Source: Escherichia virus K5
DNA length: 2,863 nt
Strand: one strand, 5' to 3'
Sequence record: Y10025.2
A program made the translations under genes and the position numbers. Shown here one piece after another: positions 233-2,863 of this stretch (positions within the stretch are counted from its first letter, which is position 1; each line of letters starts with the position of its first letter). Under the pieces are notes generated by a model. It was not told where the DNA came from and ran no database searches. It saw only the letters and a program-made list of their open reading frames with translations.

Positions 233-344
233 AGTCTGCTTCAGTAAGCCTGATGCTACAAAATTAGGTTTGTATATTCTCTCGCTAGAACGCGGATATA
301 ATTAATACATAGCTTTATGTATCAGTGTCTTACGATTTACTGGA

Positions 345-367
345 CACTATAGACGAGATACAGGTAG
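345..367 (+). promoter_or_regulatory. SP6-type single-subunit phage RNA polymerase promoter, predicted +1 at G362
   Basis: ATTTACTGGACACTATAGACGAG matches the SP6 promoter ATTTAGGTGACACTATAGAAGAG at 19 of 23 positions, with the core GACACTATAGA fully conserved. It sits in an AT-rich non-coding spacer 76 nt upstream of the tailspike ATG, and is the only such motif in the window. Confidence 0.8.
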
Positions 368-426
368 TGCCGTTCTTTAGAGCGGCCTATTACTAGCCAA
401 TCTTCATAGGGAGGGTTGGGAAGTAA

Positions 427-432
427 TAGGAG
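427..432 (+). promoter_or_regulatory. Ribosome-binding site of the tailspike gene
   Basis: TAGGAG at 427..432, 5 nt before ATG 438. Confidence 0.6.
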
Positions 433-437
433 TTAGC

Positions 438-2336
438 ATGGCTAAATTAACCAAACCTAAGACTGAAGGAATCTTGCATAAAGGACAATCTTTGTATGAG
501 TACCTTGATGCGAGAGTTTTAACATCAAAGCCGTTTGGTGCTGCAGGTGACGCCACTACTGATGATACGGAGGTTATAGCTGCTTCACTAAACTCTCAAA
601 AAGCTGTCACAATCTCAGACGGTGTATTCTCTAGCTCTGGTATTAATAGTAATTACTGTAACTTAGACGGTAGGGGTAGTGGTGTGCTAAGTCACCGTTC
701 CAGTACAGGTAACTACTTAGTATTTAACAATCCACGTACAGGTCGCTTAAGTAATATTACGGTAGAAAGTAATAAGGCGACTGATACAACTCAGGGACAG
801 CAGGTATCTCTTGCTGGTGGAAGTGATGTTACTGTAAGTGACGTTAACTTCTCAAACGTTAAAGGTACTGGTTTCAGTTTAATCGCATACCCTAATGATG
901 CGCCACCTGATGGACTTATGATTAAAGGCATTCGAGGTAGCTATTCCGGCTATGCTACTAATAAGGCAGCCGGATGCGTACTTGCTGACTCCTCAGTTAA
1001 CTCCCTCATAGATAACGTCATTGCTAAGAACTACCCTCAGTTCGGAGCAGTAGAGTTGAAAGGTACAGCCAGTTACAACATAGTCAGTAATGTTATAGGG
1101 GCAGATTGCCAGCATGTAACTTACAACGGCACTGAAGGGCCAATAGCCCCTTCTAATAACCTTATCAAGGGGGTGATGGCTAATAACCCTAAGTATGCAG
1201 CGGTTGTTGCAGGCAAAGGAAGTACGAACTTAATCTCAGACGTGCTCGTAGATTACTCAACTTCTGATGCTAGGCAGGCTCATGGTGTTACCGTAGAAGG
1301 GTCTGATAACGTCATAAATAATGTGCTTATGTCAGGATGTGATGGTACTAACTCTTTAGGACAAAGGCAGACTGCTACAATTGCACGCTTTATAGGTACA
1401 GCTAATAACAACTATGCGTCTGTATTTCCTAGCTACAGTGCTACAGGTGTTATTACTTTCGAATCCGGCTCTACCCGTAACTTCGTAGAGGTAAAGCACC
1501 CTGGCAGGAGAAACGACCTTCTCAGTTCTGCTAGTACTATTGACGGTGCAGCTACTATTGACGGCACTAGTAATAGTAACGTAGTGCACGCACCTGCCTT
1601 AGGGCAGTACATAGGTAGTATGTCAGGTAGGTTCGAATGGCGGATTAAGTCCATGTCACTCCCTTCAGGCGTTCTTACTTCTGCTGATAAGTACAGAATG
1701 CTTGGGGATGGTGCTGTATCATTAGCTGTAGGTGGGGGTACTTCTTCTCAAGTTCGCCTATTTACTTCTGATGGTACTTCTCGGACAGTGTCCCTCACCA
1801 ACGGTAACGTGCGTCTTTCTACCAGTAGCACAGGCTATTTGCAGTTAGGTGCTGATGCAATGACCCCAGATAGTACTGGTACATACGCATTAGGTTCCGC
1901 CAGTCGAGCATGGTCTGGCGGTTTTACTCAAGCAGCATTCACTGTTACCTCAGATGCTCGGTGTAAAACAGAACCTCTTACTATCTCAGATGCCTTACTG
2001 GATGCTTGGTCTGAAGTTGACTTTGTGCAGTTTCAGTATTTGGATCGTGTTGAGGAGAAGGGTGCAGACTCAGCTAGATGGCACTTCGGTATCATCGCTC
2101 AGCGAGCTAAGGAGGCTTTCGAACGTCACGGTATAGATGCACATCGCTATGGCTTCTTGTGCTTCGACAGTTGGGATGATGTATACGAGGAAGATGCCAA
2201 TGGCTCTCGTAAACTGATTACACCAGCAGGTTCCCGCTACGGTATTCGTTACGAGGAAGTACTGATATTAGAGGCTGCGTTGATGCGGAGGACTATTAAG
2301 CGTATGCAGGAAGCACTAGCTGCCCTTCCTAAGTAA
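438..2336 (+). CDS. kflA: Tailspike protein, capsular-polysaccharide depolymerase (K5 heparosan lyase KflA-like), 632 aa, with C-terminal auto-cleaving chaperone module
   Basis: Complete 632-aa ORF with RBS and dedicated phage promoter. Residues 31-50 KPFGAAGDATTDDTEVIAAS are the N-terminal signature of right-handed parallel beta-helix depolymerases (pectate-lyase-like tailspikes). A Ser/Thr/Gly-rich stalk precedes a C-terminal segment matching the endosialidase/T5-fibre chaperone family. The gene symbol is from memory of K5 lyase, not from a search. Confidence 0.9.
   Translation: MAKLTKPKTEGILHKGQSLYEYLDARVLTSKPFGAAGDATTDDTEVIAASLNSQKAVTISDGVFSSSGINSNYCNLDGRGSGVLSHRSSTGNYLVFNNPRTGRLSNITVESNKATDTTQGQQVSLAGGSDVTVSDVNFSNVKGTGFSLIAYPNDAPPDGLMIKGIRGSYSGYATNKAAGCVLADSSVNSLIDNVIAKNYPQFGAVELKGTASYNIVSNVIGADCQHVTYNGTEGPIAPSNNLIKGVMANNPKYAAVVAGKGSTNLISDVLVDYSTSDARQAHGVTVEGSDNVINNVLMSGCDGTNSLGQRQTATIARFIGTANNNYASVFPSYSATGVITFESGSTRNFVEVKHPGRRNDLLSSASTIDGAATIDGTSNSNVVHAPALGQYIGSMSGRFEWRIKSMSLPSGVLTSADKYRMLGDGAVSLAVGGGTSSQVRLFTSDGTSRTVSLTNGNVRLSTSSTGYLQLGADAMTPDSTGTYALGSASRAWSGGFTQAAFTVTSDARCKTEPLTISDALLDAWSEVDFVQFQYLDRVEEKGADSARWHFGIIAQRAKEAFERHGIDAHRYGFLCFDSWDDVYEEDANGSRKLITPAGSRYGIRYEEVLILEAALMRRTIKRMQEALAALPK
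1533..1568. repeat. In-frame imperfect 18-bp tandem duplication inside the tailspike stalk
   Basis: agtactattgacggtgca (1533..1550) followed by gctactattgacggcact (1551..1568); the core tactattgacgg recurs exactly 18 nt apart (1535..1546 and 1553..1564), encoding STIDGA/ATIDGT. Confidence 0.6.
1953..2333 (+). other. C-terminal intramolecular chaperone / autoproteolysis domain (peptidase S74-like) within the tailspike; predicted cleavage between Ser505 (1950..1952) and Asp506
   Basis: Motif S-D-A-R-C-K-T-E-P then LDAW, HFGIIAQ, a conserved Cys and a C-terminal helix EAALMRRTIKRMQEALAAL, the pattern I recall from the K1F endosialidase chaperone domain. Placement at the extreme C-terminus after a triple-beta-helix-like stalk fits. 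Confidence 0.65.
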
Positions 2337-2341
2337 GCAAC

Positions 2342-2366
2342 AGGCAGTGCGTAAGCACTGCTTTTC
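2342..2366 (+). terminator. Intergenic stem-loop with GNRA tetraloop and U-tract: candidate partial terminator or RNA-processing/stability hairpin
   Basis: Perfect 7-bp stem GCAGTGC (2344..2350) / GCACTGC (2355..2361) around loop GTAA, extendable by A-U and G-U pairs at 2342..2343, followed by TTTT (2362..2365). Lies 6 nt after the tailspike stop in the 85-nt spacer 2337..2421. Confidence 0.55.
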
Positions 2367-2410
2367 ACGCAACTTTTCTTAAAGGTTATCATGGTGGTAG
2401 CCTTTCAGAA

Positions 2411-2417
2411 AAGGAGG
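2411..2417 (+). promoter_or_regulatory. Ribosome-binding site of the downstream tail gene
   Basis: AAGGAGG at 2411..2417, 4 nt before ATG 2422. Confidence 0.7.
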
Positions 2418-2421
2418 TTAC

Positions 2422-2863
2422 ATGCTACAAAGATTAAGCACCAAGTTGATACAGTATAATGGTGAGAAATTACATACATTAATAGAGCCTTTACTTGAAG
2501 AGGTTAATCCCATTATCCGTATACCAGAAGATTACCCTTCGCTGTATGCGGTTGGTGAGTACCTTACTACTGTAAGCTATGATAACCAAGCAGTAGTAGT
2601 TGAAGTGGCAGCTGGTACTTACAGAGAAACTAAGTCACTACATGAAGTATTTGGAACTAAGTTTGGTAACGGTCGCATACAGATAGTTGGTAAAGGTGTA
2701 GATGTCACTACCTTTGAGTTCTTGAAATGTGATGGAATATATGCAGGACATGGTACTTGTTTTGGTCATGCACCACAGTATCCTGTAAGTGGCGGTGACA
2801 TCCATCCTATCTTTAAGAATTGCACACTTAGTGGTATTAACCGAGATGATGCCCTAGATGATC
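2422..2863 (+). CDS. Second tail-protein gene, 5' portion only (147 codons, continues past the window end); likely an alternative receptor-binding protein of unknown specificity
   Basis: Strong RBS, ATG start, no stop through the window end (MLQRLSTKLIQYNGEKLHTLIEPLLEEVNPIIRIPEDYPSLYAVGEYLTTVSYDNQAVVVEVAAGTYRETK...). No phage promoter of its own, so probably co-transcribed from the promoter at 345..367. Function inferred from position only; no catalytic motif recognised. Confidence 0.75.
   Translation, partial: MLQRLSTKLIQYNGEKLHTLIEPLLEEVNPIIRIPEDYPSLYAVGEYLTTVSYDNQAVVVEVAAGTYRETKSLHEVFGTKFGNGRIQIVGKGVDVTTFEFLKCDGIYAGHGTCFGHAPQYPVSGGDIHPIFKNCTLSGINRDDALDD

Follow-up and report, generated by a model that had tools for sequence, protein, structure and literature searches.

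A conserved two-hairpin spacer between the tailspike genes of coliphage K5 as a probable read-through junction of SP6-like phages

The spacer between the two tail genes of coliphage K5 is a structured element. It folds into two hairpins (HP1 and HP2) that are conserved and covary among related phages, favor the sense strand, stand without a promoter of their own and are distributed among phages in a modular fashion. With moderate confidence, we read this spacer as a conserved and structured read-through junction of the tailspike transcript in SP6-like phages, which acts at the RNA level and is composed of two modules. We infer its functional steps to be partial termination or stabilization at HP1 and translational tuning by HP2.

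The window, that is, the whole stretch of 2,863 nt analyzed here (sequence record Y10025.2), is bounded by GATC at both ends and comes from the tail-gene region of coliphage K5, an SP6-like podovirus of the Molineuxvirinae; it also carries the ends of genes 44/45. The first tail gene (438..2336, plus strand; TAA stop at 2334-2336) encodes a K5 lyase of the gp46 type with 632 aa. The lyase region is 97.9% identical at the DNA level to the K1-5 region annotated as K5 lyase gp46, and the C-terminus of the lyase is a Peptidase_S74 chaperone domain (PF13884, E = 1.5e-14). The second gene (2422..2863, plus strand) is the 5′ part (147 codons) of orf523 of coliphage K5, ending at the window edge, and showed 100% identity over 147 aa to orf523 of AF322018.1. 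From its ATG at 2422, the opening codons (MLQRL) belong to a conserved block shared with other phages, and the DNA homology of the second gene to other phages ends at about 2436-2447, after some 5-8 codons. A tblastn search with orf523 (E ≤ 1e-5) against a collection of 50,697 phage records detected no relative besides the K5 entry itself, and a Pfam search with orf523 gave no match. A minus-strand ORF of 47 aa (2249-2392) in the mechanical ORF list was rejected as being without support.

A first-pass annotation of this DNA had described a spacer of 85 nt, which is exactly the distance between the TAA stop and the ATG of the second gene (2337-2421), and a perfect hairpin within it. This hairpin, HP1, is indeed present: the arms GCAGTGC (2344-2350) and GCACTGC (2355-2361) form a perfect stem that encloses the loop GTAA (2351-2354), and TTTT follows (2362-2365). 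Folding of the spacer with RNAfold, a check proposed in that annotation, gave -35.3 kcal/mol and recovered HP1 with one G-U and one A-U pair added, which use two of the four U. HP1 (2342..2363, plus strand; RNAfold and covariation) accordingly comprises a 9-bp stem, with its perfect 7-bp core at 2344-2361 and a GUAA loop of the GNRA type. The core stem begins 8 nt past the K5-lyase stop, and HP1 overall 5-8 nt past it. The energy is -12.0 kcal/mol for the 7-bp core and -14.3 kcal/mol for the 8-bp extension in an isolated 22-nt segment. At least one perfect 7-bp hairpin arises by chance in 64% of dinucleotide shuffles of the 2.9 kb, but one followed by TTT in merely 2.2% of them. A short U-run and a single-stranded linker (UUUUCACGCAA; 2362..2372, plus strand) come after the stem, and the linker motif (C)ACGC(R)AAC is kept family-wide. 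Along the linker between the two hairpins (2366-2379; columns 37-53 of alignment A1), this motif is followed by UUUUCU, a succession kept across seven host genera; the AACUUU within it also resembles part of the T7 gene-10 “epsilon” enhancer UUAACUUUA.

The rest of the spacer is occupied by a larger second hairpin, HP2 (2373..2413, plus strand; 18 bp; RNAfold and covariation), which had been overlooked in the first-pass annotation. In HP2, a U-C mismatch separates a 7-bp lower stem (CUUUUCU/AGAAAAG) from an 11-bp upper stem that is capped by a UGG loop; the energy of the hairpin is -19.7 kcal/mol on the plus strand versus -10.7 kcal/mol on the minus strand. The Shine-Dalgarno (SD) sequence of the second gene, AAGGAGG (2411..2417, plus strand), has its first bases inside the 3′ arm of HP2. 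HP2 pairs A2411-G2413 and leaves G2414-A2415 free, the unpaired probabilities along AAGGAGG being 0.01, 0.01, 0.01, 0.96, 0.99, 0.37 and 0.31. The conserved 3′ arm thus pairs with the SD as in SD-sequestering hairpins, partially so in this window; with pairing confined to the first three bases of AAGGAGG, the masking may be mild here. Among the relatives, the degree of masking differs: Escherichia and Salmonella phages have a partly masked SD, the SD is mostly paired in the Proteus and Pectobacterium (PP1) phages, and masking is complete in the Klebsiella phages. The RNAalifold consensus kept both hairpins and also allowed a different lower stem, formed by CUUUU and the GGAGG of the SD. HP2 is like the lambda N leader, an SD-sequestering type, in that a pyrimidine-rich arm pairs with a purine-rich SD region across divergent relatives, and unlike it in that the occlusion is merely partial in the Escherichia and Salmonella phage versions. 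The second spike gene would have HP2 as its leader hairpin, with the CUUUUCU arm pairing to the purine run that leads into the SD. Such pairing suggests that HP2 tunes ribosome access, or that it must be opened or cleaved. To our knowledge, no trans-acting factor or trigger acting on HP2 has been described. HP2 is predicted to be the more stable of the two elements and appears to be the better candidate for processing or translational control. An upstream ORF starting from the ATG in the HP2 loop (2391) was rejected, since this ATG is absent in SP6, K1-5 and PP1 though the stem is kept.

The fold of the whole spacer is far more stable than that of its shuffles (-17.4 ± 2.7 kcal/mol; z = -6.7; none of 200 shuffles equalled it) and lies 10.5 kcal/mol below the fold of the antisense strand (-24.8 kcal/mol). 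Both hairpins are strand-specific because of their G-U pairs. In the K1-5 genome, the spacer is the most structured intergenic region (-0.424 kcal/mol per nt). A scan of the whole window against Rfam gave no match for the spacer at E ≤ 10. The conserved block extends from about 2342 to about 2438 (about 95 nt) and is present in about 134 phage records, including phages of Escherichia (K1-5, K1E, K1A and LL11), Salmonella (SP6 and UAB_Phi78), Citrobacter, Proteus, Lelliottia, Pectobacterium and Klebsiella. The genes flanking the block are often unrelated, for example in SP6, K1E, CrRp3 and Proteus phages, and HP1 starts from a few bases to about 10 past the stop of whichever gene precedes it.

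Covariation was assessed in an alignment of 22 distinct spacers from phages of seven host genera. A scan of IMG/VR for the pattern added few variants (L020, L025, L029 and L036), and seven chance matches from it were dropped (L017, L019, L026, L028, L030, L034 and the L049 type); a covariance-model alignment with mixed strands (A2) was left out of the counting. Standard pairs filled 95.6% of cells in the 22 spacers, compared with 82% in shuffles and 38-55% with slid partners, and both sides had changed at twelve pairs. The covariation score was 0.385, against 0.150 in shuffles (0 of 500 reached it) and 0.03-0.08 in the slid controls; the shuffle-based statistics are inflated by the shared descent of the 22 sequences, but the slid-partner control is immune to this and still favors the structure. 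Four stem pairs of HP1 were changed on both sides in 7-10 sequences each, with none unpaired. HP1 stems that vary and yet pair include CAGTGC/GCACTG, CAGCGC/GCGCTG, CACGGC/GCCGTG and CGCGGC/GCCGCG, as well as GTGCGGC/GCCGCAC, GAGCGGC/GCCGCTC, GAGTGGC/GCCACTC and CGATGC/GCATCG. This covariation among the relatives shows that HP1 is under selection. In HP2, seven pairs were changed on both sides and 97% of cells were paired. Taken with the strand asymmetry, the covariation shows that selection acts on the hairpins as RNA structures and not just as DNA homology.

The window contains a single SP6/K1-5-type phage RNA polymerase promoter (ATTTACTGGACACTATAGACGAG; 335..357, plus strand; one mismatch, with 0 expected in 200 shuffles), which serves both tail genes; its motif is likewise found upstream of gene 46 in K1-5. 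The 23-nt consensus ATTTACTGGACACTATAGAAGAG had no match in the spacer (2337-2421) when up to 3 mismatches were allowed, and no phage promoter was found at up to 5 mismatches in the interval between genes 46 and 47 of K1-5. The statement in the first-pass annotation that the second gene has no separate promoter therefore holds for the phage promoter type, and so does its dependence on read-through, which follows from the lack of a phage promoter of its own. Polymerases starting at 335-357 would pass HP1 and transcribe the second gene. A sigma-70 promoter in the spacer (2364-2392, 9/12) was rejected as being at chance level (3 sites in the window versus 5.1 expected). In K1E, gene 46 is a remnant, and HP1 stands upstream of gp47, the one spike that is functional, without an intervening promoter; therefore, read-through in K1E must be substantial. 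The annotated stop of the truncated gene 46 of K1E (NC_007637.1; L012 2508-2510) is the UAA in the GUAA loop of HP1, so that the remnant ORF extends into the hairpin. Just 5′ of the promoter at 335-357, there is also a perfect 7-bp AT-rich hairpin, ATACATA-gctt-TATGTAT (305-322), which is present in K1-5 as well. A palindrome, GTCTCACATGTGAGAC, with variants such as GTCTCACGTGTGAGAC, occurs at five places in K1-5 (L043), three copies being just upstream of phage promoters; its positions are the intergenic regions after genes 7, 9, 17 and 35.

HP1 had been proposed to be a leaky terminator. The part of this proposal that stands is a stable, conserved, sense-strand stem right 3′ of the gene, and the part that does not is the U-run, which is short. 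The GC-rich stem-loop of an intrinsic (class I) terminator is present, whereas the U-rich tract (typically at least 5-6 U in 8) is not, the tail TTTTCACG having T at 4 of 8 positions. Four U follow the core stem here and 2-4 in the relatives; the stem is kept and the length of the U-run is not. A simple terminator scan with a threshold of at least 5 T missed HP1 on the plus strand, because T occupies merely 4 of the 8 bases after the stem. HP1 may thus not terminate at all. The records of LL11, R4596 and KAW1A4500 annotate HP1 as a terminator, based on standard published predictors whose rules are laxer. The best terminator candidates of K1-5, located after the RNA polymerase and capsid genes, have longer stems and 6-7 T in 8; the energy of HP1 (-12 to -14 kcal/mol) is near those of the other terminator candidates of the phage, but its U-run is shorter. 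A “terminator” on the minus strand (2361-2344) was rejected, being the HP1 palindrome reversed, and the annotated genes of the examined related genomes all lie on the plus strand.

HP1 resembles class I terminators such as T7 T-phi and SP6 t5 in being a GC-rich stem-loop on the transcribed strand, placed directly behind a structural gene and trailed by U residues, and in belonging to a phage that has its late genes transcribed by a single-subunit RNA polymerase; partial read-through is normal for signals of this kind. It differs from SP6 t5 and the K1-5 homologue of t5 (11-bp stem, 6 T in 8) in having a 7-9-bp stem and 4 U. In vitro, SP6 RNA polymerase terminated at SP6 t5 with an efficiency of 86%, and termination at T7 T-phi was 54% (PMC11347151); HP1 was outside that experiment. 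SP6 t5 was considered as a homologue of HP1 and rejected, as it is instead the capsid-gene terminator, homologous to the K1-5 capsid-gene hairpin. A literature search for transcript ends at the HP1 site in K5, K1-5, K1E and SP6 found none. Given the short U-run and the position of the K1E spike downstream without a promoter, HP1 can be at most a leaky terminator or a 3′ hairpin. In our model, HP1 is best described as a leaky terminator and/or a 3′-end hairpin, most likely a weak one of the class I type and/or one that would protect the 3′ end of the gene-46 message.

The first tail gene is preceded by a similar two-hairpin leader (369..429, plus strand; MFE -32.8 kcal/mol, z = -4.35), consisting of hairpins A (369-386) and B (387-429). 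In hairpin B, a lower stem of 8 bp and an upper stem of 9-10 bp are separated by a 2x2 internal loop, and the 3′ arm reaches into the SD AGGAG (428-432), so that part of the SD is buried. The same leader fold was found in 17 of 18 examined relatives having a promoter before the first tail gene; the exceptions noted are UAB_Phi78 (L021), in which the MFE structure differs, and K44PH129C1, for which the slice was offset. A covariance model built from the spacers matched the gene-46 leaders of Klebsiella and Lelliottia phages at 36-46 bits and those of SP6, UAB_Phi78 and Pm5460 at 21-26 bits, and it scored 20.2 bits on the leader of the window itself (358-440) with filters off. In the strong matches, the score came mostly from HP2 aligned with hairpin B. 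This shared layout and these matches make the spacer a counterpart of the gene-46 leader that lacks a promoter.

The two hairpins of the spacer are also separable. HP1 is tied to the site behind gene 46, where the single-spike Vectreviruses 101118B1 and R4596 have retained it together with the linker. HP2 accompanies the SD and the opening codons of spike genes of the second type, and the single-spike Klebsiella phage VR702 shows the order promoter, a hairpin, HP2, SD and spike gene. In 101118B1 and R4596 (L014 2492-2596 and L015 2490-2594), HP1 is followed by a different 9-bp hairpin (CCCTTGAAG...CTTCAAGGG), an SD and gp48. With this hairpin in the place of HP2, the two-hairpin layout is rebuilt with another second hairpin. 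That both spike genes are preceded by one design suggests that spike expression is controlled post-transcriptionally. A broader and rather unlikely extension is that the two-hairpin module is a dedicated, duplicated “expression adaptor”, which would precede every spike gene of the Molineuxvirinae, with or without a promoter of its own, and whose processing (e.g. by RNase III) would activate translation and equalize the output of the cassette. If this were true, the spacer would be a functional part of cassette exchange and more than a terminator.

As a rival explanation, HP1 could be an attenuating intrinsic terminator that sets gp46 above gp47, the remaining spacer being passive. Its location directly past the stop, its GC-rich stem followed by UUUU, its annotation as a terminator in relatives and the lack of a promoter downstream agree with this idea. 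However, HP2 is conserved and covaries as strongly as HP1, so the remaining spacer is not passive, and the U-run shrinks to 2-3 U in relatives that retain the stem. K1E, moreover, relies wholly on read-through. In Leiman 2007, the two spikes were reportedly present in equal numbers on K1-5 virions, and Tu 2017 is said to have found an equal copy number of both spikes on SP6 virions. A skewed ratio would be without evident purpose in such virions, and there is no evident need for attenuation. We regard this explanation as quite doubtful. RNase III was also named in the first-pass annotation, with HP1 as its site. RNase III needs roughly 20 bp of double-stranded RNA, and HP1 is an unlikely site because its 9-bp stem falls far short of this length. 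HP2 is a better fit for a T7-style site, where cleavage by the host RNase III would free the SD of the second gene and leave HP1 or the stump of HP2 to protect the 3′ end of the upstream message. In T7, RNase III cleaves late mRNAs at intercistronic hairpins that resemble HP2 in form, and cleavage by this enzyme stimulates the translation of T7 gene 0.3 and lambda N. HP2 is made of coaxial stems of 7 and 11 bp with a 1x1 mismatch and reaches up to 23 bp in Klebsiella and Proteus phages, the Klebsiella-phage versions having 10 + 2 + 11 bp. The gene-46 leader hairpin B is comparable (two stems, a 2x2 internal loop and a partly buried SD), and several other K1-5 genes have long imperfect hairpins abutting their SD. 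Like the T7 sites R0.3 and R1.1, HP2 and hairpin B are intercistronic, have about 18-23 bp with a small internal loop and stand directly upstream of the ribosome-binding site of the next gene. Unlike those sites, HP2 has in this window the minimum length, its 18 bp being the lower limit of the enzyme, and Rfam has no family matching the spacer. We consider RNase III processing at HP2 to be a candidate explanation, if a rather unlikely one.

It could also be that the block is kept as DNA alone, as backbone homology for the recombination of spike cassettes, and that the hairpins have no function as RNA. This is suggested by the island of about 95 nt of homology between unrelated genes (in SP6, K1E, CrRp3, Proteus phages and others), by the breakpoints between HP1 and HP2 in single-spike phages and by the occurrence of the block beside a swapped spike in an unrelated myovirus, Escherichia phage alia. 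However, recombination selects identity and not compensatory changes, and at least six HP1 stem sequences all pair. The fold is also strand-specific through its G-U pairs, and the overlap with the SD is kept across divergent versions. A role as DNA only is thus very improbable. The read-through junction that we prefer is compatible with a role of the same block in recombination: backbone sequence between two hypervariable receptor-binding genes may provide homology for spike-cassette exchange, and breakpoints are located at the edges of the block and, in single-spike phages, between the two hairpins.

The spacer is the 85-base intergenic region of K5, K1E and K1-5 from Scholl et al. 2001 (J Virol 75:2509), the work with which orf523 of coliphage K5 was deposited. 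That work is said to have described a conserved 85-base spacer without a promoter, in which two dyad symmetries were a possible terminator. It reportedly also described the tail genes as a cassette arrangement and proposed cassette exchange. Beyond these reported points, the present analysis adds the covariation across seven host genera, the paralogy between the spacer and the gene-46 leader and the finding that HP1 and HP2 can occur separately. HP1 with its U-run is an already known feature, a routine and previously annotated putative terminator; since other annotators had labeled it so, the finding is real yet ordinary. The spacer lies within the known phage gene-expression signals and does not depart from them. 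Tailspike genes decide which bacteria a phage can infect, and they are parts that are swapped in phage engineering. For new spike inserts, this means that the inter-spike junction is a conserved structured RNA requiring read-through, and that each spike gene has its ribosome-binding site partly hidden within a conserved hairpin.

The block of alia, a phi92-like myovirus of 147 kb (MN850632.1, about 22701-22792; L004 4992-5083), contains HP1 and a degenerate HP2. It lies 3 nt past the stop of a spike-like gene, alia_23, the body of which had no close DNA match among the other records of the phage collection, and a gp48-like ORF of 49 aa comes next. Judged from its sequence, this block looks like a trace of the transfer of a spike cassette from an SP6-like podovirus. 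In the HP2 of alia, there is an insertion of about 14-15 nt, and the SD is lost.
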